A stretch of 64,000 nucleotides of DNA. Source: Pristiophorus japonicus. Lineage: Eukaryota. Under the pieces are notes generated by a model that saw only the letters and a list, made by a program, of their open reading frames with translations, did not search any database and was not told the DNA's origin. How positions within the stretch are numbered: the stretch's first letter is position 1; every line of letters begins with the position of its first letter. Below, piece by piece: positions 7,202-61,128 of the stretch. Where the stretch lies: the NCBI RefSeq assembly GCF_044704955.1, contig NC_091995.1, positions 4,650,001 to 4,714,000 of the forward strand, read 5' to 3'. The position numbers and the translations under genes are program-made.

Positions 7202-7502
7202 TCCACCGGTCCGCGAGAGGTGGGCGCCGGAGGGACTGGAGAGCATCATCACCCCCGGCAACCACATTTTAATTTGATTTTATATGTTTTAAAGTTTAAT
7301 TTGTTTTTATTGCCGGGTTTTAGTGTCCCCCTCCCCTTTTATAGGGGGCACTTGTAAATTATATGGTTTTAATGCCTCCCCCCAAAAAATCAGAAAAAAA
7401 CAAAAATTAAAAAAAAGGCCAGTTAAAAGTGTCTGAAGTGTCCCCCAGATCGGGGGGCACTCGATCTAATGTTTATTTCCCCCCCCCCCCCTCCGAAAAG
7501 AG
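7202..7502 (+). mobile_element. 5'-truncated Tx1-like LINE 3' end with 15-bp TSD, in the 3' UTR of TRIM copy B
   Basis: TTATGGGATGGGCCT at 7187-7201 and 7503-7517. The site is empty in the paralogs (~51414 and ~15560). Encodes ERWAPEGLESIITPGNHILI*. Confidence 0.85.
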
Positions 7503-8924
7503 TTATGGGATGGGCCTGTTAGTGACATTTAACCCCACAGATTGTCAGCGGGGCGGAGTTTTTCCTGTAGATGATCCATCGCGGACAGAAGAAGGGAAAG
7601 ATTCTCCCAGTGAAAGTGTGGGTGAAAGTGTGGAGATGGGACATGTTGTCCGCATTGTAAAATGACACCTGTCCGCCCTCATAGTCCAGGTACACCCCGA
7701 TCTTCCGGGGCTTCACACTCGGGGTGAGGCGGGTCAGTGAGGGGGAGGTGCGGGCAAAATAGACACTTCCGCGATACAGCCACACAATCCAGTATCCGGT
7801 CTCTGGGCTCGGGGTGATTGGCCCTTTCCTCCCGGCAGACTCTCGGGTCACTCCGATCTCCCACCGAGTCCTGTCCCCCACCTCCACCTCCCAGTAGTGT
7901 CTCCCTGATGTGAATCCCTCCGATCCCAGGACACAGGACCAGACATCAAACCTCTTCGGGGTGTCAGGGAGCGGCTGCTGTTTGTCCCCGAGTCTCACAC
8001 GGGTCCGGTCCTCAGACAGGATGAGCCGGGGATGGGCTGTGTTCGGATCCAGAGTCAGAGAGGCTGGAGCTGGGGGAAAGTTAAAGTAACACAGTCAGTG
8101 ATTTAGTTTCTTGCTGTGATTTATTCAAACACTTTCCTGTTTAAAGAGCCCACTCGGGCTCTGGGTTGTGATCCTGGAATCTGCTGCCGCTCCAGGGTTT
8201 ACGTCCCGGGGGCGATTTCCGTCGATTTCGGGCCAGAGTCAGCGCCCAGAGATAAAGACCCGAAAACCACTGGAGACAGCGGGGGGAGGGGAGAGAGAGA
8301 GCGGGGAGGGGAGAGAGAGAGAGGTGGTGGAGGGCGCGGAAGAGAGCGGGGAGGCGGGTGACTGGGGTTAAAGCAGCTGTTTCCAAAGACCACAAGGAAA
8401 GTAGTGTTGTGAATAAAATATTTCACAGGTAAGACAGAGTCCAGTATAAGGAATGCGATGGAAATAAACACACTGCAATTACATCTGAAGGAGAAACTTA
8501 CATTTCTAATGTTCCTGACAAATGCCTCAAAGCACTTCCCACAATGTATTACTTCCCATACCCTCCGCATAAAGTATTTGGGAGTGATTTACGTCTCACA
8601 ATCGCCCGGATTTACACCGTAAACGGAGCAGTAACGAGACAAAAACCACCCGCAGTGCTTCCCACCTGGTTCCCACCAAGGCCCGCCGGGAAATTATGCC
8701 GCAGCCGCGAAATAGGAATCCAGCGCTCCCGCACTAAACATGGGGGAAGCCTCATTAGTTTATGCAAACCGGATCCCATAATGTACATGTGACCCCAATT
8801 CAATCTTGGTCTTCCATTGGACAGTGCGTGAGCTGTGCAAGTCCCACCCAGTGCAACAGTCTGTAGAATGGCCCAACCTGTGGTCCTTAAAGGGACCACT
8901 GGAACCCCCACAGGGATTGATGCA

Positions 8925-24415: not shown

Positions 24416-26062
24416 GTACAGGAGCAAGTACAGGAGAAATGAGAAAGAGATGGTCGTCTTCACTAACAATGTAAATATGAAATATTACAGAAAATAAAAC
24501 CAGCTCTTCAATATGCTACTTTATAATGTTGTTCAGTTATTTTTGGTGAGTGTGTCGTACCTCTGCTCCTCGGGCAGACTCTCCTGAAGTAGACATGTTA
24601 ACGCACAGCAGACCACTGGCAGTGCTCAAACAGACTAAACAAGGCTCGACTTTGCAGCATGAAAGAGCTCAAGAGTCAATAGTAAAGTGTGGAGCAACTC
24701 GCTGATCTCAGCTGCCCAAAGCCTGAAGGAAAAGGTTTGGGCCTTTGAGAGGAGCGGACGAGAACTAATGGAAGGAAACGTTTGTAAAGCTAATTAGCAA
24801 AGGCGAGTGGACAATTTTGAACTAATTGAGTCAGAGTTTAGTGAAGTGGATGGGCTGGTACTCAATATTGAGGGCAAGTCACTGGGGAGCTGTGACATGG
24901 ATTTTTGCAACAGGTGCAGGGGCAGCAAGAAACAGAAATAACTGCTGGAGGAAACCGAGCATAGAAGATTATAGAGGATGTACTGACAGTAGGAAGGACG
25001 CTTGTAAAAACACTGAGAAAGCCACAACTTTGTGAAGACAGGAATAGGTCATTCAGCTCCACAAGCCTGTTCCACCATTCAATTAGATCAAGCCCCAACT
25101 CCTAATGGAGAAGACCAAGTCATGGCGGAAGTAGTATTTCAGAAGTCAGAGAACATGGTTAGGGCAAAGATGCAGTTGGTGAGGTGCAGAGAGATTCTGG
25201 CTGTAGGGAGGTGGGTGGTGATGAGTGTGGTAATGATGATGAGTTGGTTACCTAGAGATAGGTCTGTGCACATTGAAGATAAATGACAAAAGGTACTGGA
25301 GGAGCAGGAAGGGCTAAATGACAACGTAAGAAATCCTGTAAGGGCTCTGAACCCTCCCATGCAAGGATGGCCAAGAAAATCAAGGCAATTTCCTTTGACA
25401 TACTTCCTGTTCTGGGTGAAAGAGGTTTGTAAAACATGAGTAACTGCCAGTCAACTTGCTGCTAAAATAATACCAGGACTTTGAAAAGTAAATGGAGTTG
25501 ATCTTGTGACACAAAATGGGAGAGTGATGACCAAATAAAAACAATGGAACTGGTCAGGAACATTGAAGTAGCTGCAAGAAGCATTTACATTGGATAGGAG
25601 GGAGAAGGCCAGGAGGAAAGGTGATCCACATGACATTGATTACAGAGTGGAATCTAGACAGGAGGTGTGTGATATACAAGAACCAGGTAACATTAACAAG
25701 GGTAAACTAGGGGCCAAAAGGTGGGAACATCTACAGTAAGCTGTATAGACGTGAACGCTGAATGCATTAGGAATCAGCAATTACAAAACACGAGGCTACT
25801 GTACCACTCGGGAACTACAGTGTTGTGGGAATATTATAAACATGGCTGACTGCAGAGGATTGTGCACAGGGACAGGAGGAGCCTGTTCCACCGTTCAGTT
25901 AGATCATGGCTGATCTGTACCTCAACTGCATTTGCCCGTTTTTGCTCCATATCCCTTGATGCCCTGAACCAACAGAAATCTACCCATCTCAGTCTTGAAA
26001 ATGTTGAATTGTTTGATCCTCGTATTCAGTCTTTTGAGGGAAAGAGTTCCAGATTTCCACAA

Positions 26063-26926
26063 TTCTTTTGTCGAAAAACATAATTAAACATTAAATCAAG
26101 TGCCCCCTAATCTGAGGGGACACTCCAATCACTTATCAATGCCCTTCTTTTGTGGGTTTTTTTGTGGGGTTTTTTTGGGCAGTTAAAACGTGAATATATA
26201 CAAGTGCCCCCTATAAAAGGGGAGGGGGACACTACAACCGGCAATAAAACAAATTAAACTTTAAAACATATAAAATTAAATTAAAATTTGGTTGCCGGGG
26301 GTAATGATGCACTCCAGTCCCTCCAGCACCCACCTCTCATGGAAGGCCGCGAGCGTACCGGTGGACACTGCGTGCTCCATCTCCAAGAACACCCTGGCTC
26401 GGATGTACACACGGAAGAGAGGCAGGCAGTCAGGCTGAACGACCCCCTCGACCGCCCGCTGCCTGGACCGGCTGATGGCACCCTTGGCCGTGCCCAGGAG
26501 CAGTCCAACGAGGAGGCCCTCAGACCTACCCGCTCCCCCCCGCACAGGGTGCCCAAAGATCAGGAGTGTGGGACTGAAGTACAGCCAGAATTTCATGAGC
26601 AGCCCCTTTAAATAGTTGAAGAGGGGCTGCAACCTAGCACATTCGGTAAAAACATGGAACACGGACTCTTCCAAACCGCAGAAATTGCAGGCGGCCTGGG
26701 AGCCCATGAACCGACTTAAAAATTTGTTGCATTGGAACTGCTCCATGCACCACCCTCCAGGCCAAGTCCCCGATAAACAGTGGGAGGACTCCCGCCTCCT
26801 CCGGACGGCAAGATGGTGCGCCATGGCGTGTCCGGACGGCAGACAACGATGGCAAGGTTGAGAGTGTGCAGGAGCAGCCCGTACAGGAAACCCCTCTGCG
26901 CAGAACTGAAAGGCATGGAGGGGATT
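26063..26926 (-). mobile_element. 5'-truncated Tx1-like LINE (ORF2 C-terminal zinc finger plus 3' UTR) with 16-bp TSD
   Basis: CNFCGLEESVFHVFTEC zf-RVT-type motif. TTCCAGATTTCCACAA at 26047-26062 and 26927-26942. Clade assignment is by resemblance. Confidence 0.8.
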
Positions 26927-27674: not shown

Positions 27675-30453
27675 TGTTATGTAATGATGTGTGTATCGTC
27701 CCAGTACCTTAAATGTATTGTAAGTACTATGCCACACCACAGAGGGCGCTGCGGTGGGAAACCCTGGTAGTACCTGTAACAAGGGCTATATAAGGCTGAC
27801 CACCACACCTGGGAGGCACTCTCGAGCTGAACAATAAAGGACGAAGGTCACAGCAGCTAGACTTACACCAGACCGTGTGGAGTCAGTGATTTGTGTGCTA
27901 CATACACCACTTTGGCAACGAGGAAGTGGACGAACTCCACGCAACCATGGCTACTCTGGCCTCGCTAAAGGATTTTACCGTGGGCAATGATTGGGAGGCC
28001 TTTACGGAAAGGCTCGAGTACTACTTCAGGTCAGCAAATGACCTGACGGAGGACACATACGCAATGAGAGAGAAGCGCAAGGCGATATTACTCTCCAGTT
28101 GTGGAGATGAGGTTTACTGTCTCATCAGGAATTTGCTGGCACCCGGGAGCGCCAGGGACAAGTCATACGAGGAGCTGACTGAACTCATTCGTGACCAGTT
28201 GAAACCGAAGGAGAGCATCCTCACGGCCAGATACAAATTTTACCATCACTGCAGACCCGAGGGCCAGGATATCACCAAATATGCTGCGGACCTCAGGAGA
28301 CTCGCGGCGCCGTGTGATTTTGGGGCACACCTTGACGAGGCTTTGCGGGACGTTTTCATTATGGGGATTGGCCACGACGGCCTCCTTCACAAGCTGCTGG
28401 CCACGGAACCCACAGTCACTCTGACAAAGACCATCGCCATCAGCCGGGCATATATGACCTCTACTTGCAGCACCAAGAAAATAATCCACAGTCTCGAACC
28501 CAGCAGGCACTGTCCACAGGATAGCGCCCACCACGGACAAAACTGCAGAACGTGACTCTGCCCGGGGCAGAGAGCACGGACCTCGGGATCCTGGAGCTCA
28601 GAGTCCGCCGAGGGGGGCCAATCAAGCAGCACCATGCTGGCGCTGTGGAGGAAGCCATGGGGCTCACCGGTGCAGGTTTGCGGAGTATACGTGCAATACC
28701 TGCCACGTTAAAGGCCACCTTCAGCGTATGTGTAAAAGAAATCGGACTCACCATGTGGCTGAGGAGATGGGGGATGATCCACTGTTCAGCGAGGAGCAGG
28801 TAGAAGAAGATGAGGTGTTGGGACTGTATACGTGCACCGACGATTCGCCCCCAGTGATAAGTGAAGTAAAAATCAACGGAGTCCCAGTGAGTATGGAAGT
28901 GGACACGGGCTCGGGTCCGTCGTTGATGAGTCGGGGAACTTTTGATAAACTGTGGATTAACCCAGCTGCACGACCCAAGCTGGTCCCGGTCATGGCGAAG
29001 CTGCGTACCTACACCAGGGAACTAATACCTGTTCTCGGCTGAGCGATGGTGCAGGTATCCCGCGGGGACGAGACACACGGGGACGAGAGACACGAGACCT
29101 TTGTGGGTCGTTGCAGGCGATGGGCCGACACTCCTTGGCCGGAGGTGGATAGGGAAGGTCCGTGGGAGCTGGGAAGACTTCATTCCTCCACAGGCTGCTG
29201 CTCCCCGGGGTGCTGCCATGCCCCGGGTCCTCAGAGAGCAGCGCCGACCAAGCTGGAGCTGCAGCCTCAATCCCCCCACAGGCAAGTCCCAGGCCCGGAT
29301 CTCACACAGAGACCCTGCAGCCCCAGCCCCCACAGGCAAGTCCCAGGCCCGGACCTCACACAGAGACTCTGCAGCCCCAGCCCCCACAGGCAAGCAGCCC
29401 TGAACAGAGGGGCCTAGTGGGGGGGGGGGGGTAGTGAGCTGGCGGGGCGCTGCGGGCGGGGTGCTGAGGGATCCAGGGGCCGGTGGTTCGGAAGGGCCCC
29501 GCAGAGGAAGAGGCCGTTTGGCGGGCCCCGCCGAGGAGCTGGTAGCGTCGGGCGGCGGCAGCAGCTGGGGGTCGGCGGCCATGGCAGCCGCAGGGGAGGC
29601 CGCTACGGAGGCCGCGGGGGACGTGACAAGTGCAGCCGCTGGAGAGGCCACGGCGGCCGCAGGAGAGGCGGCAAGTCAGGTGGCAGCGGGTGGGAGCGGA
29701 GGCTGTGACGGCGGAGGGCATTCGGAGCGGCGGCGGAGAAGAAAATGGCGGCGGCATCGTGTCGGAGCTGCAGAGCATCAAAGATGGCGGCGCCCAAGGA
29801 GAAGCCTCGTGGAATCCTCCTGCATCAAAGATGGCGCCTTAAAGAGGAAATGCACCCAGGAGTCTTAAAAGGGCCTTACAAAGAGGTGGTCCCCACAAAG
29901 GACTTCTGTTTGGCAGAGCGAGTCTAAAATGAGCTATGTTAATGTGAGATAGTGAATTTATAATAAGAATTACTTTTTTTATGCTGAATGGCATATTTGT
30001 GTAAAATAATGGATGAAGTACAATTAATGATAACAGCTAACAAGGAAATCAAGTTTCCGCTACCAGTCAATAACCAGTTAATGTACCAGATAAAATGTAC
30101 CATACTAACGCACTGTCTATGCCCACCTGCCTTCCGTTGGACAAGTGTGATGTTATGTAATGATGTGTGTATCGTTGTCCTGCGTCCAGGTCCGGGGGCG
30201 GTGGGGGGGAAGGTGATGTTATGTAATGATGTGTGTATCGTCCCAGTACCTTAAATGTATTGTAAGTACTATACCACACCACAGAGGGCGCTGCGGTGGG
30301 AAACCCTGGTAGTACCTGTAACAAGGGCTATATAAGGCTGACCACCACATCTGGGAGGCACTCTGGAGCTGAACAATAAAGGACGAAGGTCACAGCAGTT
30401 AGACTTACACCAGACCGTGTGGAGTCAGTGATTTGTGTGCTACATACACCATA
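27675..30453 (+). mobile_element. Non-autonomous Gypsy-type LTR element: 237-bp LTRs (27675-27911, 30217-30453), tRNA-Ser-like PBS, gag with two CCHC knuckles, protease; no RT or integrase
   Basis: Near-identical LTRs and 5-bp TSD CTTCT (27670-27674, 30454-30458). PBS TGGCAACGAGGA; CWRCGGSH..C and CNTCHVKGH..C knuckles; MEVDTGS protease; PPT before the 3' LTR. Confidence 0.92.
29273..29394 (+). repeat. 54-bp tandem repeat (~2.3 copies) inside the LTR element
   Basis: GGCAAG at 29281, 29335 and 29389 with conserved units. Confidence 0.85.
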
Positions 30454-32065: not shown

Positions 32066-32667
32066 CCCCCTCCCGGCCAATCACAGCACACACCCCGCGC
32101 CCGCTCACAGGGGCAAAGACTGACGACCGTTAAACATTAAATATTTAAACCCAACCGGCAAGTTCCGAGCGCGAGCCTCTTTCAACCGAAACCATGGCCG
32201 CAAACCCCGCCTCCCGGCGGCGCTGATTGGCCAGTGGCGGAGCGGTGTGGGAGAACAGTGGGGAAGCGGATTGGCCGGAGCGCCTGGCACTCATAGTGAA
32301 GGAGGTGGCTTTCCGGGGCGGGGCTCTCCCGGGGGAAGCCGACTGGCCGGAGCGCCTGTCACTCAGAGTGAGGGAGGCGGGTTTCCGGAGCAGACCCGGG
32401 CCTCAGTGGGAGTCGGACTCGGAACTTGGGCAGTGTGTTTGGGTCGAGCGCTAGTGACGCCGCGGTGGGCCCTTGTCTCGGCGAGTTGGAGCCGGTGGGA
32501 GCGGTTCACGGCGGCCGCCGCCTGCTTTTATACTCGGGGCGGGGTTTATTTCACACTTTGGATTCTTCTTGTTATTATTCACTCGGGGGGAGCCAGGGCG
32601 TCATGGCAACGGGTTTGGTGAGCGAGCTGGACAGTCGCTTCTTCCCCGGGAACCTGCTGAGCGGTGG
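32065..32667 (+). promoter_or_regulatory. CpG promoter/ATF6B-like exon-1 cassette, copy 2 (ATG 32603; canonical donor lost; 2 repeat units)
   Basis: Paralog of 563-1335; encodes MATGLVSELDSRFFPGNLLSGG. Confidence 0.7.
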
Positions 32668-44346: not shown

Positions 44347-47300
44347 ACTTACAGGATTTCTTACATTGTCATTTAGCCTTTCCTGATCCTCCAGTACCTT
44401 TTGTCATTTATCTTCAACGTGCACAGACCTATCTCTAGGTAACCAACTCATCATCATTACCACACTCATCATCACCCACCTCCCTACAGCCAGAATCTCC
44501 CTGCATCCCACCAACTGCATCTTTGTCCTAACCATGTTCTCTACCTTCTGAACTGCTTCTTCCTCATGAATTAGCCTAATGCATTAGGAGTTAGTGATTG
44601 ATCTAGTTGAATGCTGGAACAGGCTCGAGAGGCTGACTGGCTTACTCCTGTTCCTATATCTGTACATTGTGTCTTTACAATCATTCCTCCTGCTGTCAGT
44701 GTATTCTCTATTCTCTTGCTTGCTCGGTTTCCTCCAGCAGTTATTTCTGTTTCTTGCTGACCCTGTACCTGTTGCAAAAATCCCTGTCCCAGCTCCCCAG
44801 TGACTCGCCCTCAATTATGAGTACCAGCCCATCCACTTCACTAAACTCTGACTCAATTAGTCCAATACTATCCACTGGCCTTTGCTAATTAGCTTTCCAA
44901 TCGTTTCCTTGCATTAGTTCCCGTCCGCTCCTCTCAAAGGCCCAAACCTTTTCCTTCAGTTTTTGGGCAGCTGAGATCAGCGAGTTGCTCCGCACTTTAC
45001 TATTGACTCTCGAGCTCCTTCATGCTGCAAAGTCGAGCCTTGTTTAGTCTGTTTGAGCACTGCCAGCGGTCTGCTGTGCGTTAACCTTTGTGTTTCTGTC
45101 TATTTCAGGAGAGTACACCAGAGTAGCAGAGGTTCAAGACGCTCTCCAAAAATAACTGAACAACATTATAAAGTAGCATATTGAAGAGCTGGTTTTATTT
45201 TCTGTTTAATATTTCATATTTACATCATTAGTGAAGACGACCATCAGCCAAACATAGCGGAAGGCAGCCTGTCTCTGAGAGCATTTAAAGGGCTACCCAG
45301 TATAGAGTGTGGAGACATGTAATGGACATTCTCAACCCTGGTACGGAGGGCCTTTCCTGTTTTCTTACTTAACCCGTCAAATCCTCAATAAGTGGGCACA
45401 TCTTAAGAATACCAGACACAAGTACAAAAATGTAAATATTATCCATACCCACTTCAAATAAGAAAATAAATGAAATAGCAGCATGTGATGTCTGATTCAT
45501 GATTTATAATACAACAATCAAATACTAATCACAACTATTTTAGAAGCAATCAGCCATTATAATTAATTCATTAGTAAACAAGCAGTGATTTAAATCATTA
45601 ACCTCTTACAGTGGGTTCTCTCATGGTTTAAAACTGGAGAATTAATGCACGAGTATATTCACAACTGATTTGGTCAAATCACTTTCAATCACCTCCTGAC
45701 TCCCCAAAGCATATAAAAAGCACAAGTCAGAAGTGTGATGGAATACTCTCGGCTTTCCTGGTTGAGTGCAGTTCCAGCAAAGTTCAAGAAGCTCGACACC
45801 ATCCAGGACAAAGCAGCCGCTTGATTGGCACCGACCCACCACCTTAAACATTCACTCCTTCCACCACCGTCACACTGTGGCTGCAGTGTGTACCATCTAC
45901 ACGTTGCTCTGCAGCAACTCCCAAACCCATGACCTCTACCACCTAGAGGGACAAGGGCAGCAGATGCAGGGGAACACCCTCACCTACAAGTTCCCCTCCA
46001 AGTTACATACCACCTTCACTTGGAAATATATCAGCCGTCCCTTCATTGTCGCTGGGTCAAAATCCTGGAACTCCCTAACAGCACTGGGGGAGCACCTTCA
46101 CCTCACAGACCGCAGCAGTTCAAAAAGGTGGCTCACCACCCCCTTCTCAAGGGCAATGAGGGATGGGCAATAAATGCTGGCCTTGCACCACCACATCCCA
46201 GGAATGAATGAACAAAATACAGAAGAGACTTTCAACATGGAATTTTTGCACTTCAATGAAAAAAGATTAAGAAAAGGCCTTGAAGGGAGTGGAACACGGG
46301 GAAGTTTGAAAATATTTGTGAAGAAAATGAAGTAAATCAGAAATATAATGGTTGAGTGATGTCAGGAATGTGTTTTTAAATCTGTAGATTTTAGAAAGAA
46401 GCAGAGACAGAAAAAAAATAAAAGAAACTGACGGATTTCTGAGCGGCCTCCAGCGGGTGTTTGAAGAGCAGCTGGTTCGGCCACTCAACGCTCCCTCACT
46501 CCGCCCATTTGTACCTCAGAATTGCAATCAGGGTCCTCTGTATGTCACGGGACCCTGGTTTGACGAGGTTTCCCCTCTGAAACAGGCGGGCGTTCCCGCT
46601 GTCCATCTCAGGACCCCACCCAAGTGCCAGCGTGAACTTTAGTGCCATTTCCAGGCGACTATCGCTCCGGTTACACCAGGTGGGGGCTCTTACAATCAGC
46701 CCCGTTAGTTCAGGATAGGAGCAGGAGGCCATTCAACCCCTGGAGCCTGTCCCGCCATTCAATGAGATCATGGCTGAGCTGTGTCCAAACTCCATATACC
46801 CGCCTTTGCCCTATATCTCTTAATACCTTTGGTTAATGAAAATCTGTCAATCTCAGGTTTAAAATTAACAATTGATCCAGCATCAATTGCGGTTTGTGGA
46901 AGAAAATTCCAAACTTCTCCCACCCTTTGTGTGTCGAAGTATTTTATAACTTCACTCCTGAAAGGCCTGGCTATAATTTTTAGACGATGACCCTAGTCCT
47001 AGACTCCCCAAGCAGTGGAAATACTTGCTCTCAGTTCCCCTTAATATCTTGAAAACTTCGATCAAATCATGTCTTAAACTTCTAAATTCCAGGGAAGGAT
47101 AAAATAAGGATCCAGAGCAAGGTGCAAATTTTAAAAAATACGTTTAGTCCATGACTCTGGGACGTAATTATTCCTCGAATCGTTTAAAAAAAAATAACTG
47201 CCGCTTCTATTGTGCAGTTTAATAACAGACTTGGCATTGGAATTCTGGAATTCTTTGAGGATATAATGAGCATGGAGGTGTACCGATGGATGTGGTGTAT

Positions 47301-47785
47301 TTAGATTTCCAAAAGGCATTCGATAAGGTGCCACACAAAAGGTTACTGCAGAAGATAAAGGTTCGCGGAGTCAGAGGAAATGTACTAGCGTGGATAGAGA
47401 ATTGGCTGGCGAACAGAAAGCAGAGAGTCAGGATAAATGGGTCCTTTTCGGGTTGGAAATCGGTGGTTAGTGGTGTGCCATAGGGATCGGTGCTGGGACA
47501 ACAACTGTTTACAATATACATAGATGACCTGGAAGAGGGGACAAAGTGTAGTGTAACAAAATTTGCAGATGGCACAAAGATTAGTGGGAAAGCGGGTTGT
47601 GTAGCGGACACAGAGAGGCTGCAAAGAGATTTAGATAGGTTAAGCGAATGGGCTAAGGTTTTGCAGATGGAATACAATGTCGGAAAGTGTGAGGTCATCC
47701 ACCTTGGGGAAAAAAAACAGTAAAAGGGAATATTATTTGAATGGGGAGAAATTACAACGTGCTGCGGTGCAGAGGGACCTGGGGG

Positions 47786-50362
47786 TCCTTGCGCATGAAA
47801 CTCTTTTAGGGAGTTAATGGAAAAAACATTAAACCGTGCCCCCCGATCTGGGGGAAACACCAACATTTACAATGCCATTTTTTTTTTGGCACAGAATTGA
47901 ATTTTTCTCCAAGTGCCCCCTATAAAAGGGGAGGTGGACACTAAAAGCACCGGCAATTAAAACAAATTAAACTTTAAAATGTAAACAAATGATTTTGTAA
48001 TTAAACACAATGAATGTTCGGAGTGGGATTCAAACCCATGCCTGCAAAGAAGACTGTGAGCTGAACACAGCACCTTGGACCACTCGGCCATCCTGACTGC
48101 TTCCTTGTGCATGAAACTCTTTTGAGTTTACCTGAAAAAAAAACATTAAACCGTGCCACCCGCCCTGGATGACACAGCAGACATTTTCAAGGCCCTTTTT
48201 TTTCCTTTTTTGTGGTTTTTTTTTTGTGTTTTTCTTTTTTTTTGGGTGCTAAATCACATTTTTCCAAGTGCCCCCACTAAAAGGGGAGGGGGACACTAAA
48301 AGCACCGGCAATTAAAACAAATTAAACTTTAAAACGTAAAATCAAATTAAAATTTGGTTGCCGGGCGTGATGATGCACTCCAGTCCCTCCGGTGCCCACC
48401 TCTCGCGGAAGGCCACAAGCGTACCGGTGGACACCGTGTGCTCCATCTCCAAGGACACCCTGGACCGGATGTAAGAGTGGAAGAGAGGCAGAAAGTCAGG
48501 TTGAACGACCCCCTCGACCGCCCGCTGCCTGGACCGGCTGATGGCACCCTTGTGCATGAAACTCTTTTAGAGTTTATCTGTAAAACAAAACATTAAACCG
48601 TGCCACCCGACCTGGGTGACACACCAGACATTTACAAGGCCCTTTTTTTTCTTCCTTTTTTTTTGTGTTTTTCTTTTTTTTGGTTTTTTTTTTGGGCACT
48701 AAAATCACAATTTTTCCCCAGTGCCCCCTATAAAAGGGAAGGGGGACACTAAAAGCACCGGCAATTAAAACAAATTAAACTTTAAAACGTAAAATCAAAT
48801 TAAAATTTGGTTGCCGGGCGTGATGATGCACTCCAGTCCCTCCGGTGCCCACCTCTCGCGGAAGGCCGCGAGCGTACCAGTGGACACCGCGTGCTCCATC
48901 TCCAAGGACACCCTGGACCGGATGTAAGAGTGGAAGAGAGGCAGGCAGTCAGGTTGAACGACCCCCTCGACCGCCCGCTGCCTGGACTGGCTGATGGCTT
49001 CCTTGTGCATGAAACTCTTTTTGAGTTTATCTGTGAACATAAAAAGACATTAAACCGTGCCACCCGCCCTGGATGACACAGCAGACATTTACAAGGCCCC
49101 TTTTCTTTTTTCTTTTTTTGGTTTTTTTTTGGGGCGCTAAAATCAAATTTTTTCCAGTGCCCCCTATAAAAGGGGAGGGGGACACTAAAAGCACCGGCAA
49201 TTAAAACAAATTAAACTTTAAAACGTAAAATCAAATTAAAATTTGGTTGCCGGGCGTGATGATGCACTCCAGTCCCTCCGGTGCCCACCTCTCGCGGAAG
49301 GCCGCGAGCGTACCAGTGGACACCGCGTGCTCCATCTCCAAGGACACCCTGAACCGGATGTAAGAGCGGAAGAGAGGCAGGCAGTCAGGTTGAATGACCC
49401 CCTCGACCGCCCGCTGCCTGGACCGGCTGATGGCTTCCTTGTGCATGAAACTCTTTTAGAGTCTACCTGCAAAACATAAAACATGTATCCGTGCCACCCG
49501 ACCTGGATGACACACCAGACATTTATAAGGCCCTTTTTTTCTTTCTTTTTTTTTGTTTTTTGTTTTTTTTTGGGCACTAAAATCAAATTTTTTCCTTTTT
49601 CCAGTGCCCCCTATAAAAGGAGAGGGGGACACTAAAAGCACCGGCAATTAAAACAAATTAAACTTTAAAACGTAAAATCAAATTAAAATTTGGTTGCCGG
49701 GCGTGATGATGCACTCCAGTCCCTCCGGTGCCCACCTCTCACGGAAGGCCACGAGCGTACCGGTGGACACCGCGTGCTCCATCTCCAAGGACACCCTGGA
49801 CCGGATGTGAGAGCGGAAGAGAGGCAGGCAATCAGGTTGAACGACCCCCTCGACCGCCCGGTGCCTGGACCGGCTGATGGCTTCCTTGTGCATGAAACTC
49901 TTTTAAGTTTACCTGCAAAACATAAAAACATTAAACGGTGCCACCCGACCTGGGTGACACTCCAGACATTACAAGGCCCTTTTTTTTTTTCCCCCCCTTT
50001 TTTTTTGTTTTTTTTTTGTGTTTTTCTTTTTTGGTTTTTTTTTGGGCACTAAAATCACAATTTTCCCCAGTGCCCCCTATAAAAGGGAAGGGGGACACTA
50101 AAAGCACCGGCAATTAAAACAAATTAAACTTTAAAACGTAAATTCAAATTAAAATTTGGTTGCCGGGCGTGATGATGCACTCCAGTCCCTCCGGTGCCCA
50201 CCTCTCGCGGAAGGCCGCGAGCGTACCGGTGGACACCGCGTGCTCCATCTCCAAGGACACCCTGGACCGGATGTAAGAGCGGAAGAGAGGCAGGCAGTCA
50301 GGTTGAACGACCCCCTCGACCGCCCGCTGCCTGGACCGGCTGATGGCTTCCTTGTGCATGAA
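47786..50362 (-). mobile_element. Head-to-tail array of six Tx1-like 3'-end units separated by seven copies of the CR1 target (T)CCTTGTGCATGAA
   Basis: Target copies at 47786, 48102, 48548, 49000, 49436, 49883 and 50349. Five units encode AISRSRQRAVEG...PGNQILI*, homologous to 26063-26926. Confidence 0.92.
48015..48097 (-). tRNA. tRNA-Leu(CAG)-derived pseudogene, 83 nt
   Basis: GTCAGGATGGCCGAGTGGTCCAAGG..CTGTGTTCAGCTCACAG..GGGTTTGAATCCCACTCCGAACA aligns with vertebrate tRNA-Leu-CAG. It has two acceptor-stem mismatches and TTC->TTT in the T-loop. Confidence 0.88.
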
Positions 50363-51429
50363 TCCCAAAATGTTAGTTTGCAGGTGCAGCAGGTAATCAG
50401 GAAGGCGAATGGAATGTTGGCCTTCATTGCGAGAGGGATGGAGTACAAAAGCAGGGAGGTTCTGCTGCAACTGCAATTGGTGAGGCCGCAACTGGAGTAC
50501 TGCGTGCAGTTTTGGTCACCTTACTTAAGGAAGGATATACTAGCTTTGGAGGGGGTACAGAGACGATTCACGAGGCTGATTCCGGAGATGAGGGGGTTAC
50601 CTTATGATGATAAATTGAGTAGACTGGATCTTTACTCGTTGGAGTTCAGAAGGATGAGGGGTGATCTTATAGAAACATTTAAAAATAATGAAAGGGATAG
50701 ACAAGATAGAGGCAGAGAGGTTGTTTCCACTGGTCGGGGAGACTAGAACTAGGGGGCACAGCATCAAAAAAACGGGGGAGCCAATTTAAAACCGAGTTAA
50801 GAAGGAATTTCTTCTCCCAGAGGGCTGTGAATCTGTGGAATTTTCTGTCCAAGAAAGCAGTTGAGGCTAGCTCATTGAAATGTATTCAAGTCACGGATAG
50901 ATTGATTTTTAACCAATAAGGGAATTTAGGGTTACGGGGAGTGGGCGGGTAAGTGGAGCTGAGTCCACGGCCAGATCAGCCATGATCTTGTTGAATGGCG
51001 GAGCAGGCTCGAGGGGCTAGATGGCCGACTCCTGTTCCTAATTCTTATGTTCTTATGTATGTTCAGACACCTTCTGCCTGTGGAGAAACATTACAGGCAG
51101 GAAGGTCACCGGGTTCCTGCAGTTCTCAGCTCATTCCACCCAGTGAGTTCCTCTCCACAATTCACCATCCAGTGTTTCTTCTCCCCCTCCACCCCGCTCT
51201 CTATCCCACTCCCCCCGCTCTCTCTCCCACCTCCACCCGCTCTCTCTCCCTCTCCCCCTCCCCCCGCGCTCTCCCCCCATCCCTCTCTCCCGCTCCCCCC
51301 CACACTCTCTCTCCCCTCCCCCCATTCTTTCTCTCCCTCCCCCGCTCGCTCTTCCCCCGCTGTGACAGAGACTGATGCCCATCAGTTTTCAGCTGGTAAG
51401 AGGCAGGGTGAAATTATGGGATGGGCCTG

Positions 51430-54400
51430 TTAGTGACCTTTAACCCCGCAGATTGTCAGCGGTTCGGAGTTTTTCCCGCCATCATTCAGTCCCGGATTGA
51501 AGAAGGGAAAGATTCTCTCAGTGAAAGTGTGGGTGAAAGTGTGGAGATGGGACATGTTGTCCGCATTGTAAAATGACACCTGTCCGCCCTCATAGTCCAG
51601 GTACACTCCGATCTTCCGGGGCTCCACACTCAGGATGAGGGGGGTCTGTGAGGGGGAGGTGCTGGCAACATAGTCACTTCCGACATTCAGTCTAACAATC
51701 CAGTATCCGGTCTCTGGGCTCCTGGTGAATATCCCTTTCCTCCCGCCATACTCTCGGGTCACTCCCATAAACCACCGAGTCTTGTTCCCCACGTCCACCT
51801 CCCAGTAGTGTCTCCCTGATGTGAATCCCTCCGATCCCAGGACACAGAGCCAGACATCAAACCTCTCCGGGGTGTCAGGGAGCGGCTGCAGTCTGTCTCC
51901 GAGTCTCACACGGGTCCGGTCCTCAGACAGGATGAGCCGGGGATTCGCTGTGTTCGGATCCAGAGTCAGAGAGGCTGGAGCTGGGGAAAGTTAAAGTAAC
52001 ACAGTCAGTGATTTAGTTTCTTGCTGTGATTTATTCAAACACTTTCCCTTTTAAAGTGCCCACTCGGTCTCTGGGTTGTGATCATGGAAACTCCTGCCGT
52101 GCCAGGGTTTACGCCCCGGGGGTCGATTTAAGTCAATTTCGGGCCTGAATCAGCGCAGTCAGCGCCTGGAGATAAAGACCCGAAAACCACTGGAGACACT
52201 GAGGGAGGGTAGAGAGAGATCGGAGGTGGGCGGGAGGAGGGGGAGAGAGACTGGCGGGACAGTGTGAGTGGGGTCGGGGGAGGGGAGAGAGAGAGCGGTG
52301 GGGTTGGGTTGCGGGGAGACTGAGGTTTAAGCAGCTGTTTCCAAAGGCCACAAGGAAAGTAGTGTTGTAAATAAAATATTTCACAGGTAAGACAGAGTCC
52401 AGTATAAGGAATGCGATGGAAATAAACACACTGCAATTACATCTGAAGGAGAAACTTACATTTCTAATGTTCCTGACAAATGTCTCAAAGCACTTCCCAC
52501 AATGTATTACTTCCCATACCCTCCGTATAAAGTATTTGGGAGTGATTTACGTCTCACAATCGCCCGGATTTACACCGTAAACGGAGCAGTAACGAGACAG
52601 AAACCACCTGCAGTGCTTCCCACCTGGTTCCCACCAAGGCCCGCCGGGAAATTATGCCGCAGCCGCGAAATAGGAATCCAGCGCTCCCGCACTAAACATG
52701 GGGGAAGCCTCATTAGTTTATGCAAACCGGATCCCATAATGTACATGGGACCCCAATGCAATCTTGGTCTTCCATTGGACGGTGCGTGAGCTGTGCAAGT
52801 CCGACCCAGTGGAACAGTCTGTCGAATGGCCCAACCTGTGGTCCTTAAAGGGACCGCTGGAACCCCCACAGGGAATGATGCAAGGAGTTAGTTCCGTCCG
52901 CTGTCCTGGACAATATTTATCCATCAACCAACAATAAGAAAACAAGTTATCTGGTCACGATCACATTGCTGTTTGTGGGAGCTTGCTGTGCATAAACTGG
53001 TTGTGGCGTTTCCCACATTACAACAGTGACTACACTTTAAAAACTCTTCATTGGCTTTAAAGAGCTTTGGAACGTCTTGAGGTCGTGAAAGGTCGGATAT
53101 AAAAACATGTTCTTTCTATTTATTCTCTAACAGTTTCTCTGTGGCCGGGAGGTGCATGAATTGTCCTGCCCGCTGCTGGCTGCTCCTCGGCTTTGCCCCT
53201 CCGCCCCACAACCCCCACCATCCTACCTCCTCCCCCCCGGATATATTTTCCCGCCTTTCTCTGAGTTTGAGACTGTCGCTACTTTGTTGTAGACTCTGTG
53301 ACTGTGTTAAACCTCTGGATGTTTATCTTCTGTCTGCGGTTTAGGATTTTGAATACTTCAGTAAGATCACCCCAAGCCCTCCCTTGTCCAGTGCAAAGAC
53401 TCCTGACTTCCAGACTAGACACGGACATCGGTGATCATTTAATCCAGGGTCTGGGAGCCGGTTTAGGCCCTTCTCATCTGGAGTTATAAATCATGAAAAG
53501 GAACATAGGAGATTTACCAGGGTTAATGGCGTCTATCATTTCTCTCCATGCTGTGTACTGTAAAGGGCCGTTGAACTTTCCGATAGGCAGGGCGCCATCT
53601 ACTACTGACAGCACGGGATCGTCTTCACTAATCCTGTAAATATTATGCAGTTGATGTTATAAATTGACCATAAACACTTTACCAAACTGCAGAGATTCTG
53701 TAAAGAGCATGTCCTACCTCCCCTTCCAACAAGCTTCCTCCTGAAATAAATAAAACACAAACAGTGAGGACAGTAATAGACTTCAGGAGGACACAGACAG
53801 GCTGGTGAAATGAGCAGACACAGGGCGGATACAATTTAACACAGAGAAGTGTGAAGTGAAGCATTTTGGAAGGAAGAATGAGGGAAGGCATTGTAAACTA
53901 AATGGTACAATTTTAAATGGAGTGCAGGAACAGAGAGACCTGGGGGAATCACATTTACAAACTTGATGGAGCGTGGCGATTATTTTTAACAGTGAATCAT
54001 AGAATCATAGAAATGTACAGCACGCCAGGAGGCCATTCAGCCCATCGTGTCCGTGCCGGCTGACAAAGCGTATCCAGCCTAATGTCACGTTCCAGCTCTT
54101 GGTATGTAGGTTTAAAGGTTACGCCTCTTCACATACATATTCAAGTATTTTTAAATGTGGTGCGGGTTTCTGCCTCTACCACCCTTTCAGGCCGTGAGTT
54201 CCAGATCCCCACTACCCTCTGGGTGAAACATTATCCCCTCAAATTCCCTCTAAACCCCTAGAAATTGCTTTAAATCCATGTCCCCTGATTGTTGACCCCT
54301 CTGCTAAGGGAAATCGGCCTTTCCTATCCACTCTTTCTCGGCTCCTCATAATTCGAAACACCTCAATATGGTCTCCTCTCAGCCTCCTCTGTTCCAAAGT

Positions 54401-56232
54401 AAACAATCCCAATCCAATCTTTCCTCGTAGCTAAAATTCTCCAGTCCAGGCAACATCCTCGCAAATCGCCTCTGTACCCTCTCTAGTGCAATCACACCTT
54501 TCCTGTAATGTGGTGACCAGAACTGCACGCAGTACTCTAGCTGTGACCTAACTAGTGTTTTATACAGTTCAAGCGTAATCTCCCTGCTCTTGTATTCAAT
54601 GCCTCGGTGAATGAAGACAAGTATTCCGTATGCCTTCTTAACCACCTTATCTACCTGTGCTGCTACCTTCAGGGATCTGTGGACACGCACTCCAAGGTCC
54701 CTCTGTTCCACAATGACTTGTGATGATCAGGAATGCACTGAATGACAGCGTGGAGGAAGCAGATTTCATGGTAATTTTAAAAAGGGAATTGGAAATACAC
54801 TTGAAATGGAAATAAATGCAAGGCTATGGGGAAAGAGGAGTGGGATTAATAGGATCGCTCTTTCAAAGAGCCACACAGACACGATGGGCCATTTGTGCTG
54901 TAGGATTCTATGACTGTAAGTAGTTGAACATTCCGATTCATGTGTCAGATACTGGAACTCAACATCAGTGCCACTCACACACACAGTGACTGTCACACCC
55001 ACCGTACCACACACACCACACACCACAACATGGAACTGGAACTGGATTGCAATGTGAGTTCTGGGAGATATTAAACTATGGGGCAGCACAGAAATAATTA
55101 TAAGCAAAGTATTAACATCACAGCAACCCATTCCCATGATTTTACAGACAGTGTGGGAGTGGGATATTTCCGTGTCGATAGCAGAACCGCCCATGAATAG
55201 ACAAAACAATCGGTTTAAATCAGTTTCGAAATGTTCAGCAAAAGCTGCATTTATTTTAGTTATCATCAGTTATTTTGTGACTGTGTGAAGTTTCACTGAA
55301 TTGACCCACAATATAATCCTCACCTTCAGCAATGTCAGTCCGTCTTTTTGCTCCATCTGTTTCTGCAACTTTGAGAGCTCCTCCTGAATAGAATTTAAAT
55401 TCTCTTGAATCTGTCGAAGATTTTCCTCCATTGTTTCTAGAATCTTCCCCTCTTGTTCCCTGAGATCTCGGATTAAACGCTGCTCTTTCTCAATGAGAAT
55501 CTGGTGCATTTTAGTGAACTCGAATGTGATGCGGGTCTGCAGACTGCTCGACTGTTCCTACCAAATGAAATATGAAACATAATTAATGTCCCGGGATAAA
55601 GGGAACAAAACTAACCGAGATCCCAGAAAATCAGCTCAGGGAGACCTTACCCTAATTCCGGAAATCTGCTGTTTCTGTTTTAATTCCGTTTCTAGAGCCG
55701 CCGATTTCTTCTCCGTGAGAGAATCTAAGGAAGATTTCAGCCGATCCTGGGATTGGGAGAGAAAATCACGGAGTAAACGTGTTAGACCATGAAAATATGA
55801 TAAAATAATCAGGTGATCAAATCTGTTCCCTGTTACCTTGTAAAATTCAACAGCTTCTTTAATGGGCATGAAGCGGTGCTCTCTGTGTTCCCGCGCAACA
55901 ACACACATCACGCAGATCAATTTCCTGTCAGTTTCACAAAACAGCTTCAGTTCTTCCTGATGTTCCTCACAGTGAAGTTTACTTTCTGTCTCTTTCGGAT
56001 TCGGGGTTAATTTTCGAGCTTTCTCGGCCAGATTCGCTGCCATCCGATTTACCCTGAGGTTTCTTTCCGGAAACTCCTCTCTACATTCCGGGCAGGAGTT
56101 TGTCTCCTTCTTTTCCCAACACTGTGTGATACAGGCGCGGCAGAAGTTATGCCCACACTCCAGTAAAACCGGATCGGTGAAGAAATCCAGACAAATGGGA
56201 CAAATTGCCTCCTCAGCCAAACTCGCGGCCAT
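51430..56232 (-). CDS. Intact TRIM copy D, RFP/TRIM27/TRIM39-like E3 ligase (RING-B-box-CC-B30.2), 471 aa; exons 56232-55837, 55746-55651, 55557-55324, 53740-53718, 53633-53518, 51980-51430
   Basis: aacATGG start; C3HC4 RING, B-box, coiled-coil and PRY/SPRY motifs. Introns are GT-AG with consistent phases, and the 1416-nt spliced frame is open. Confidence 0.92.
53995..54710 (-). mobile_element. CR1 3' fragment in intron 3 of copy D
   Basis: ORF 54379-54711 has [21 protein letters not shown]; tail repeat present. Confidence 0.85.
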
Positions 56233-58390
56233 GTTTTCTCTCAGCACTTCCTGATTCAATCCGCTCTCAGTTACAGTGTTTACTGAGCTGCCGAACACCC
56301 TCAGTTCAGCGATTTCCCGAAGAAGTTCACTGCAATACTCAGGGATGTCCCGTCGACTTTTACACGGGGAGACAAAACTTCGAGCAGACTGAAGGACAAA
56401 CAGGGTTGGAGCACGGAGGGGACGAACTGAACCCCGGCCGGGAGGGTGAAAGTCCCTGGGGTATTGGCAGTGGGAGGAGGGAGGGAGAGAGGGGGGAGGA
56501 GGCGGGGATTGGCGGGGCTCCAGATTCCAGTGCACTTTGCTCCGGACCGAACTCACTGCCGACTGCACACCCTCTGGTGAAACTCGGTGTGAGATAAACA
56601 GAATCGTGTTAACGATCGCAGCCGCTCACCCTAAAACACAAAGTGCCCTCAATGTCAAGGAGCTGTCTGGAAACCATGACCAGTGTCAGTGCTTCCTGAT
56701 TGAAACTGCTGGAGTCATGTTTCTGTGGGTGGATCCAGACCCGGTTCCCAGTCACAGATCACTCTGAGTCCCTGGAAGTGCTGCCCACATCTGGATGAAA
56801 TAGAATCGCATTTACAAAGTCTGTGTCGTTTCGGGATGAGCACCGCGTTATACTGGGAGTCAGCGGTCATTTTATTGAGGCTGGGAAGCGGGAGAGGGGA
56901 AATGAGGAAGGCAGTGGAGAGATGAATGCTGATTTGGAAGACAGCGTTTTATTTTATAGATTTTGTATGCAGTGTTATGATGCAAAATGGTGCGGTGCCC
57001 ATTTTCTAGAAATTTTGCGTTAGTGCCCGAGACCAATTTCACTCCAGAATTCCTGCATTGAGTTTTTTTGTTCTTAATGAAAATGCATTCACCATCGATC
57101 ACATGAGTTTAGAGTGGTCTCAGCATCTTTATTACTCCCATTAATCTAACAATTCATATAACACAAATGAAATTAAAAAAAACAGTTATGCCAGACAACA
57201 ACTCTGAAGCAGGAAGTCGAAGCGCTGGTTACTAGTCTATCATTGACTGCATTGCTATTCACTACAATATCACAGTGAACATTTAGAAGCACAGTCCCAA
57301 TGGATGGGTTTCTTCTGTTTAAATTGCAGAACTGACGAGCACTGGGTGATTGTTTCTGTGTTCTACCAAGTGATCTAAGTCTGTAAAGCACTTCCTAAGG
57401 TTGTGAAATGCGCTATATAAATGGAAGTTGCATTTTTTTATTGTCGTGGCCACTAACTTTATTAATGTGAGACAGTTGCTAGAATACAATAGGATGATAA
57501 TCTTGTCAGTAAATTATCGAGTTACATAAAACTTCAGAGAGCCTGCATTACCTCCTGTTCTCATCAGCTGCCTGATAAACAGACTGTCACTCACACTGAC
57601 TGTTCTGTGCTTAATAGATTGGCATGTGGTAGCAAGATCAATCATATCAAAGTGATTTCAAAACTATCAACGCCTCGATATCCTCACTGCGACAATGACA
57701 GGAACAAATTAGATCTGGAAAGTTATATTTCTGTGTAGTTATGGACATTGACAGGAAGTTAGTCCCACTGACACTTGGAAACATACATTGGAACTAAAAT
57801 AAGTTTCCAAGATCATTACAAATGATGGAGGCCATTCTGCCCATCTTGAGGCATCAGAGAGATCTTCACTTCATCCCATTGTCCCATTGACTTGTTTCTT
57901 TAATGATTCCAGGGTTTGACAAGATTATCATCACTCTATCTGGAATTTCATTCCACATTGTGATGACTCTGGGGTGGGGATGGGGAGGAGATTTTGAAGC
58001 CTACCACTGCTGCAAACAAGGTGGCAGTGCCATAAAAATGTACTGACCACTGGTGGCCCCTGTGATCCTGATCCACTACAAGGAGCCCTGCGGCCCCCGG
58101 TCTCCTGCGGTTCTCAAGCAGAATGATGTGTGCAAAATATTGCAGGTTTCTGAAGGCAGTGGTTCATCCAAGAAACCCTGTATTTGTTATATTGGGAGAG
58201 CTGAAATTTCAGCTGACTACTTGAGGCGCTGTTTTAGAAAGTGGTTTTGTTGCAGAAATAAGTTTAATTCTACTCAGCGCCATTTGTAACCCTGATACAT
58301 TGCAACTGCTTAAAGATCATCTTTGATATGATTTGTTCATTGTATATCACATGAGTTATAAATCAGAACATAGGAACCTATGAGTTTTAC

Positions 58391-60512: not shown

Positions 60513-61128
60513 TCCCCCTCCCGGCCAATCACAGCACACACCCCGCGCCCGCTCACAGGGGCAAAGATTGCCGGCCGTTAAACATTAAATATTTAAACCC
60601 AACCGGCAAGTTCCGAGCGCGAGCCTCTTTCAACCGAAATCATGGCCGGAAACCCCGCCTCCCGGCGGCGCTGATTGGCCAATGGCGGCACGGTGAAGAG
60701 CTCTACGGGAAGCCGATTGGCCAGCATGACTGTCACTCAGAGTGAGGGAGGCGGGTTTCCAGGGCGGGGCTCTGCTGGGGGAAGCGGATTGGCCAGAGCG
60801 CCTATCACTCAGAGCGAGGTAGGCGAGTTTCCGGGGCGGGCCCGGGCCTCAGTGGGAGTCGGACTCGAAGCTCGGGCAGTGTGTTTGGGCCGAGCATCAG
60901 TGCCACAGCGCTGGGACCTTGTCTCGGCGAGTTAGAGCCGGTGGGAGCGGCTCACGGCGGTCGCCGCCTGCTTTTATACTCGGCGGCGGGGGGGGTTTAT
61001 TTCACACTTTGGATTCTTCTTGTTATTATTCACCCGGGGGGAGCCAGGGCGTCATGGCAACGGGTTTGGTGAGCGAGGTGGACAGTCGCTTCATCCCCGG
61101 GAACCTGCTGAGCGGTGGCTGCGGTAAG
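60513..61128 (+). promoter_or_regulatory. CpG promoter/ATF6B-like exon-1 cassette, copy 3 (coding 61054-61123, G|GTAAG donor; 2 repeat units)
   Basis: Paralog of 563-1335; encodes MATGLVSEVDSRFIPGNLLSGGC. It is preceded by the same (TTG)n tail as copy 2. Confidence 0.7.

Follow-up and report, generated by a model that had tools for sequence, protein, structure and literature searches.

Tandem copies of a site-specific Tx1-clade LINE inside a CR1-type LINE of Pristiophorus japonicus share 5' ends private to each array

A 64,000-nt stretch of the Pristiophorus japonicus genome (assembly GCF_044704955.1, contig NC_091995.1, positions 4,650,001 to 4,714,000 of the forward strand; hereafter the window, whose own numbering is used for positions given without a prefix) carries at 47786-50362 a stack of six units inside a CR1-type long interspersed element (LINE). 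This stack consists of 5'-truncated copies of an autonomous, site-specific LINE of the Tx1 clade, which belong to different lineages and are inserted antisense at one 14-bp site of the host LINE, and we suggest that the 5' junction of each newcomer was probably set by pairing with the copy already resident there. The evidence comprises the full-length element and its site, the 14-bp duplications, the non-monophyly of the units, mosaic copies, growth mainly on the 5' side and, above all, a common 5' end private to each array, which is the main point beyond an initial annotation of the window.

That annotation had described a CR1 split by six same-orientation units, each bounded by one target copy, with the host resuming behind them and the target regenerated by each target-site duplication (TSD), and this description holds. 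The target core occurs seven times within 47786-50362 and nowhere else in the window, and between these copies lie six minus-strand units, head to tail and with exactly one target copy separating each (316, 445, 453, 436, 447 and 466 nt for units 1 to 6, each counting one target copy). The leftmost target copy carries one substitution. The host reading frame is translated as QRDLGVLAHE on the left of the stack and as SQNVSLQVQQVIRK on the right; as it resumes in frame after one duplicated 14-mer, a single 14-bp duplication accounts for the break. Units 2-6 are 87-93% identical in pairwise comparison and contain the final ~70 codons of open reading frame 2 (ORF2), followed by a 3' untranslated region (UTR) without poly(A). 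As annotated, their A-tracts vary, as do their 3' ends, and the 5' junction of unit 2 differs by two letters from that of units 3-6; the CAAGG microhomology between element and target at the common 5' end is also real by sequence comparison. As to the hairpin variants, a hairpin with a 5-nt loop is predicted at the 3' ends of all six units, but the z-score is at or below -2 in only two of the six, and therefore no structural claim is made for these ends. Unit 1, for which a wholly different head had been noted, begins with a sequence derived from tRNA-Leu(CAG), as identified by ARAGORN and Rfam.

The source of the units is a full-length element of 7.2 kb, which is found on C1 in stretches of head-to-tail copies with one target copy between each. 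It encodes an ORF1 of 698 aa without a Pfam match and an ORF2 of 1,299 aa, in which a domain scan detected Exo_endo_phos (an apurinic/apyrimidinic endonuclease, APE; residues 6-227), RVT_1 (reverse transcriptase, RT; 512-761) and, under the curated cut-off (23.7 vs 27.5 bits), zf-RVT (1137-1180). ORF2 is 49% identical over 1,296 positions to that of Xenopus Tx1, its best named full-length match in a ranking by similarity, not a phylogeny, with teleost elements at 35-38%. A separate upstream ORF1, the lack of long terminal repeats (LTRs), variable 5' ends and a fixed 3' end are further features of the Tx1 clade, to which the units had been assigned correctly. Both ORFs are intact in 15 of the 43 full-length copies examined, and the window units thus represent truncated copies of an autonomous family that is young. 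In another organism, a contig matches 50048-50354, within the ORF2 tail of unit 6, with three differences and one gap in ~306 nt; since this contig continues into further sequence of the element, that organism has a close relative of the family.

Repeated targeting of one site in an abundant LINE, as originally proposed, is borne out by 16,007 exact matches to the target joined to the element's 3' end in the 5.92-Gb genome, against none for a reversed control pattern. A 29-nt motif of the 3' UTR, which is independent of the target and favours younger lineages, has 8,925 matches in the genome; among 53 copies of it on C1 up to 32.6 Mb, 48 are on target (35 with the exact junction, 13 with variant letters) and five are off target, 14-bp duplications being present also at four of these five. 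The APE-type enzyme of the family is likely to have a 14-bp specificity. By exact patterns, the left end is occupied in 7,265 cases and the site is empty in 27,756, corresponding to ~21% occupancy, which is a rough figure because the two patterns probe different flanks. The site lies ~700 bp from the 3' end of the host, and most truncated hosts can therefore be expected to carry it; the right-hand flank is a different one at four loci or more, where it comes from a second host subfamily. Named matches to the host RT come from rays, chimaera, birds and turtles (46-66%) and none of them bears the name CR1, while the host 3' tail consists of short tandem repeats without poly(A); we take the host to be a CR1, the dominant LINE of birds and turtles. 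Taken together, the named relatives of the two LINE proteins would indicate a cartilaginous fish. Among first units with a visible 5' end, 21 of 84 are stubs shorter than 60 nt, and insertions of 12-14 nt, corresponding roughly to the hairpin-like terminus of the element and flanked by a full 14-bp duplication, are found at L100, L101, L103, L115, L116, L120, L134, L140, L145 and L150.

Two solo copies in the window do occupy different targets, as the initial annotation stated, but the loose specificity deduced from them is at odds with the proportion of copies on target. The site of solo A has 13 matches, all within C19 4.66-5.91 Mb at ~39-kb spacing, and these are therefore copies of one insertion multiplied with a duplicated gene cluster, which rules it out as a second specific target. 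The site of solo B, with two matches only, was likewise rejected as a specific target.

The independent origin of the units, which the annotation had favoured, is supported by a tree of 109 tails spanning the last 435 nt (from 134 units, with unit 1 left out). Units 2-6 occupy five places in this tree, and forcing them into monophyly costs 110.6 log-likelihood units (p-AU 0.00067 in the approximately unbiased test). The distance of each to a copy at another locus is 1.5-4.0%, compared with 3.8-8.3% among themselves; unit 6 is likely the youngest of the array. At the same time, the exact junction of units 3-6 was found only in this array when the 5.92-Gb genome was searched. A wider search around this start point returned 20 junctions genome-wide, five of them in the window array, including the four exact copies of the unit 3-6 junction. 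Neither a short family nor simple amplification accounts for both the non-monophyly and the array-private junction.

Sharing of 5' ends is common elsewhere. In a manual tally of adjacent pairs from C1 loci, taken from position lists, not chosen by their 5' ends, and with one repeated block dropped, 17 of 24 truncated pairs shared their 5' end (17 of 27 on adding three stub pairs), compared with 3 of 990 unrelated pairs formed from the first units of 45 loci. Every array has a start point of its own. The bodies in most same-start pairs diverge like random copies, disagreeing at sites which segregate among other loci, and the 3' ends of most pairs differ in lineage markers. Some units are mosaics, resembling their neighbour at the 5' end but carrying a foreign 3' end. 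An exception is a pair at C1 9.76 Mb, whose members differ only near the 3' end. At L113 a junction retaining just four target letters recurs between two unlike bodies, and at L125 two truncated units bear a 9-nt piece from the 5' end of the full-length unit downstream of them. The L198 pair, considered as another aberrant junction copied between lineages, was rejected as a near-exact duplicate (293/295 identical).

Full-length neighbours can be mosaic over longer distances. Two full-length units on C10 are identical over positions 1-2126 but differ at 59 later sites, and both have the same short unit upstream. A similar repeat at C1 57.7 Mb comprises a pair of short units together with 1,613 nt of a full-length unit, the remainder of which differs. 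Over the first 100 nt, at most one difference was seen in 10 of 17 adjacent full-length pairs, compared with 0.8% of 1,134 cross-locus pairs. When the young 9.7-Mb array is set aside, this holds for 5 of 11 pairs, and these five show 5-17 differing sites within positions 300-640.

A mobile CR1-Tx1 composite, considered for loci with identical stubs at C1 0.2-3.2 Mb, was rejected as their outer flanks are also shared; these loci are therefore segmental duplicates, and at most one of each kind entered later counts. The region C1:0.18-3.25 Mb (L001-L010, L014, L015) comprises three locus groups, each alike in inserts and flanks, and represents a large segmental duplication close to the end of the chromosome. 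Rearranged junctions, with an inverted 5'-end piece plus target or short host-flank duplications, were seen at L092 and L218 (C1:11.38 Mb), L025 and L142.

Arrays grow mainly on the 5' side of the element, as R1 arrays do, which is seen indirectly, from private substitutions. Of 24 arrays tested, 22 were informative (2 ties), and in 18 of these the 5'-side unit has fewer private substitutions (p 0.004). Adjacent pairs point the same way, with 26 vs 11 (20 ties); addition of new units on the 3' side was dropped after this test. Unit 1, at the 3' side of the window array, has an older-type tail. Units with an intact 5' end make up 16/25 of those whose downstream neighbour is intact vs 18/84 first units; without the 9.7-Mb array and the stubs, a manual tally gave 10/18 vs 18/63 (p 0.049), and this effect is therefore modest. 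Over the whole genome, intact 5' ends were counted in two contexts, with 4,220 located behind another unit and 453 next to the main host flank.

A different type of junction is found in an older lineage. Five full-length copies, ~3% apart and with five different outer flanks, share a junction which deletes the site together with some host DNA, and this target-deleting 5' junction has 154 dispersed matches. The simplest reading, by analogy with melanogaster-type R1, is that an RNA carrying upstream host sequence gave a cDNA which could anneal to the new target. For 8 of 12 hosts of this lineage, the nearest or tied nearest host is a non-member; transposition of the whole composite is the less likely reading. 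The presence of 154 dispersed junctions in differently flanked hosts points to homology-guided 5' joining in the family.

Unit 1 is likely the oldest unit of the window array. Its tail is closest to an older-lineage full-length Tx1 copy (92.8%), and its head resembles tRNA-Leu gene copies including ~32 nt of trailer up to a T-run, which makes a template switch onto a precursor tRNA likely. Although it has the composition of a short interspersed element (SINE), its head deriving from a tRNA and its tail from a LINE, the many dispersed copies of a SINE are lacking: its junction of head and target has one match in the genome, i.e. itself, and a tRNA-Leu SINE family is unsupported, the head-tail junction being unique. 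Among 29 other tRNA-Leu loci read (best 30 of 40 scored, from 1,529 candidates), one has a Tx1 tail, with a different junction. An Rfam scan of the array region returned nothing besides the tRNA. Around the start point of units 2-6, 11 of 15 letters of the unit 1 junction agree with the element. Past the TSD, units 3-6 have three letters in common with unit 1, of which two are not element sequence. These few letters suggest that unit 1 may have seeded the start point of units 2-6.

Captures of small RNAs on Tx1 3' ends at the CR1 site are recurrent, and include a tRNA-Leu chimera with another junction (L153:1534-1616), two other tRNAs (L073:8884-8955 and L132:9449-9537) and a whole 5S rRNA (L099:9458-9577). 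In addition, L154-L181, on C20 and unplaced contigs, hold many degenerate tRNA-Leu(CAG) copies with a common trailer, some of them adjoining tRNA-Glu; an initial search gave the same 1,529 candidates.

We propose the following course of events. The endonuclease would nick the TSD that adjoins the resident at its 5' end, and the RT would copy the new RNA. With a copy of this element lying beside the nick, annealing of the new cDNA, or of an opposite strand which has been extended into the resident, could proceed by long homology, not microhomology, and synthesis would then reproduce the 5' end of the resident as far as the site. A truncated resident would thus act as a ruler, trimming the newcomer to the same start, while on a full-length resident a short cDNA would be brought to full length, and copying through further units would produce repeated blocks. 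In the window array, unit 1 probably came first, through a template switch onto the pre-tRNA, with its junction likely seeding the start of units 2-6. It is further conceivable, although here the balance tips slightly to the negative side, that arrays serve as the element's own repair templates, most full-length copies having been completed from the 5' end of a resident beside the nick.

A number of observations weigh against this proposal. No insertion intermediate has been observed. The start point in the window is a microhomology hotspot which is used elsewhere too, with 15 further matches at ~11 loci within 3 nt. Of the 24 truncated pairs, 7 have different 5' ends (10 of 27 if stub pairs are included), and among the 17 full-length pairs 7 are not close over the first 100 nt. 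Polarity is reversed in 4 of the 22 informative arrays, and the five window units taken by themselves show no trend in private changes. Among 12 hosts of the 154-copy lineage the distance is 4.1%, slightly below the 4.5% that separates them from 54 other hosts. Most samples were taken within the first 60 Mb of a single chromosome. Finally, plain near-copies exist among neighbours, namely three adjacent units at C1 9.72-9.74 Mb and the L198 pair, so that ordinary duplication occurs as well.

Such near-identical neighbours would be expected if tandem duplication came first, by exchange or slippage between two TSDs and perhaps started by a nick, with later abortive insertions overwriting the body from its 3' end with foreign cDNA while the old 5' junction stayed in place. 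This sequence of events also accounts for shared junctions with foreign bodies and for mosaics with foreign 3' ends. However, just one of 17 same-start truncated pairs (L198) is near-exact, and conversion would therefore need to follow almost every duplication; the first duplication would have only 14 bp of homology to work with, and 4 bp at L113; and neither the younger age of 5'-side units nor the L125 junction, built from a neighbour of different length, is predicted. We consider this, the main rival reading, unlikely.

Alternatively, independent insertions could have been truncated alike through microhomology with the target end, at most aided by a second-strand cut a few bases into the resident. 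The window start is indeed a real hotspot, position 4342 is the start at two unrelated loci, and the L125 junction fits a 17-nt duplication. The hotspot, however, covers ~20 of the 16,007 junctions, each array has its own start against the low background of sharing given above, and shared tracts of 100-2,100 nt together with copied upstream units largely refute this explanation, which is left with very little probability.

Amplification of one or two insertions by unequal crossover, the alternative named in the initial annotation, fits the identical units at C1 9.72-9.74 Mb and L198, but satellite-like units were recognised only in these few cases elsewhere; for the window array it is rejected by the monophyly test and by units as far apart as given above, with 3' variants matching other loci. 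An artefact of assembly could be argued from the fact that no long read was found to span the window array and that contigs of four sequencing runs are too short to bridge its units, but five lineage-specific units are not something an assembler would invent, and we regard both possibilities together as very improbable indeed. A short non-autonomous family with a fixed 5' end, which the annotation had preferred on seeing five units of ~430-450 nt with one start and to which starts within 3 nt at ~11 other loci might be added, has a negligible chance, being refuted by the confinement of the unit 3-6 junction to this array, by the membership of the units in five lineages shared with long and full-length copies, by the other common starts of other arrays and by the full-length autonomous source.

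Parts of the observed behaviour are known from other systems, as described in the accessible portions of the papers cited here. Tx1L of Xenopus laevis, the type member of the Tx1 clade, inserts site-specifically into the transposon Tx1D (as cited in PMC4494074), and our element is similar to it in its two ORFs, its ORF2 (identity as given above) and its insertion into another transposon. It differs in its target, which is coding sequence of a CR1-type LINE instead of a DNA transposon of the piggyBac type, as well as in its ~16,000 junctions and its arrays with shared 5' ends. Crocodilian Tx1-Mar and SINEU-3 also use a fixed site in another transposon, form tandem insertions sandwiching one TSD, which were read as sequential insertion, and include small-RNA heads on Tx1 tails (Kojima 2015, PMC4494074); all three features recur here. 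The crocodilian targets are Mariner, Harbinger and LTR elements and microsatellites, not CR1, and unlike SINEU-3 the tRNA-headed unit of the window is a one-off and not a SINE family. Shared 5' truncations are not described in the accessible portion of that paper.

R1 in Drosophila 28S ribosomal DNA (rDNA) forms stacks with 14-bp TSDs, to which new copies are added at the TSD on the 5' side of the resident, and the precise 5' junctions of melanogaster-type R1 were proposed to arise by cDNA annealing to the upstream target (Stage and Eickbush 2009, PMC2718515). Our element shares with R1 the APE-type site-specific mode, the 14-bp TSD between stacked units and growth on the 5' side, and the precise R1 junctions resemble those of the 154-copy lineage. 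R1 belongs to another clade, however, and has rDNA as its target; its annealing partner is target DNA carried in the RNA, whereas here it is likely the resident element. Dimers of Drosophila transposable elements (TEs) were attributed to repeated insertion at one site, with possible later unequal exchange, and distinct 5' truncations, found in 6/10 jockey dimers, were taken as a sign of double insertion (McGurk and Barbash 2018, PMC5932611). Our tandems also stem from repeated insertion at one site, but here independent lineages share their truncation, so that equal truncation cannot prove duplication. In templated or chimeric L1 insertions and in the 'anneal' junctions of R2 transgenes, the cDNA leaves its RNA and pairs with nearby homologous DNA in a manner resembling synthesis-dependent strand annealing, and Pol III RNAs are captured as extra templates (10.1101/2024.08.27.596794, PMC11371274). 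Pol III RNA capture has its counterpart here, and so, probably, does pairing with nearby homologous DNA. Those events are rare, have short templates and come from cultured or tumour cells, while in our case such pairing appears to be the majority outcome beside a resident, in the germline and with tracts up to kilobases. In a literature search outside which most subscription journals and Repbase fell, neither CR1 targeting by a Tx1 family nor truncations common to neighbours of independent insertion were found to be described. Tx1 families which target other transposons and stack on the TSD are thus known, and the proposed neighbour-templated 5' ends are apparently new, in that they were not found in the literature searched.

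The coordinates of the stack and related features are listed in Table 1. The host LINE (47245-51061) lies downstream of a PRY-SPRY exon in a duplicated cluster of TRIM-like genes. Minus-strand pieces of such genes lie at 50-415, 7519-8094, 11942-12355, 51430-51990 and 55636-56625, with two copies ~44 kb apart; by motif they are presumably RING/B-box, coiled-coil and PRY-SPRY exons. As seen from the 13 copies of solo A, the cluster unit repeats at ~39-kb spacing over C19 4.66-5.91 Mb. Broken coding pieces resembling LTR retrotransposons are located at 22176-24484 and 27890-29042 and hold what we take to be gag, RT/RNase H and integrase motifs, and a dispersed repeat with an internal 72-bp tandem unit occurs in three places (706-1047, 32257-32559 and 60703-61005).

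Table 1. Positions of the stack, its host and related Tx1 copies in the window, with the loci of the target-deleting lineage.
Feature	Position	Strand	Remarks
Host LINE, CR1-type, 5'-truncated, upstream of site	47245..47799	+	RT region to QRDLGVLAHE; 93.6% to another host copy; host-family protein matches
Target copy 1	47786-47799	+	End of upstream host part
Unit 1, pre-tRNA-Leu/Tx1 chimera	47800..48101	-	Leader, gene and ~32-nt trailer to T-run, plus ~185 nt of older-lineage Tx1 3' UTR
Degenerate tRNA-Leu(CAG)-derived head of unit 1	48015..48097	-	ARAGORN; Rfam tRNA 29.4 bits
Target copy 2, 14-bp TSD	48102..48115	+
Unit 2, Tx1 ORF2 last ~70 codons and 3' UTR	48116..48546	-	Stop 48347-48349; 5' junction resolved within CAAGG microhomology
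Target copy 3	48547..48560	+	13/14 letters; outer letter contributed by element
Unit 3, Tx1 ORF2 tail and 3' UTR	48561..48999	-	Stop 48800-48802; array-private 5' junction
Target copy 4	49000..49013	+
Unit 4, Tx1 ORF2 tail and 3' UTR	49014..49435	-	Stop 49236-49238; 5' junction as unit 3, other lineage
Target copy 5	49436..49449	+
Unit 5, Tx1 ORF2 tail and 3' UTR	49450..49882	-	Stop 49683-49685; 5' junction as units 3-4, other lineage
Target copy 6	49883..49896	+
Unit 6, Tx1 ORF2 tail and 3' UTR	49897..50348	-	Stop 50149-50151; 5' junction as units 3-5; 1.5% from closest copy elsewhere
Target copy 7	50349..50362	+
Host LINE continuation (SQNVSLQVQQVIRK...)	50363..51061	+	Ends in short tandem-repeat tail without poly(A)
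Solo A, off-target older-lineage Tx1 tail	7202..7503	+	Own 14-bp TSD, just past stop of PRY-SPRY exon
Solo B, truncated Tx1 copy	26062..26925 (5' limit approximate)	-	Different site in CR1-type 3' region
Loci of target-deleting older lineage	L237-L248, L073, L080, L117, L118, L122

The joining of the 5' end is the least understood step of target-primed reverse transcription in LINEs, and here thousands of germline insertions at one site beside marked residents make tract lengths, polarity and rescue rates readable from one genome. The same 5' truncation in tandem copies can no longer be taken as proof of duplication, which is a common shortcut. The family also supplies intact, young copies of an APE-type enzyme, its captured 5S rRNA and tRNA precursors are raw material for new SINEs, and roughly one in five of the matching sites in one LINE is here occupied by another LINE. 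If arrays do act as repair templates, this would explain why about nine in ten of the intact 5' ends counted lie inside arrays, and truncated cDNAs would be rescued in stacks, which would also combine promoters and ORF1 with new ORF2 lineages.

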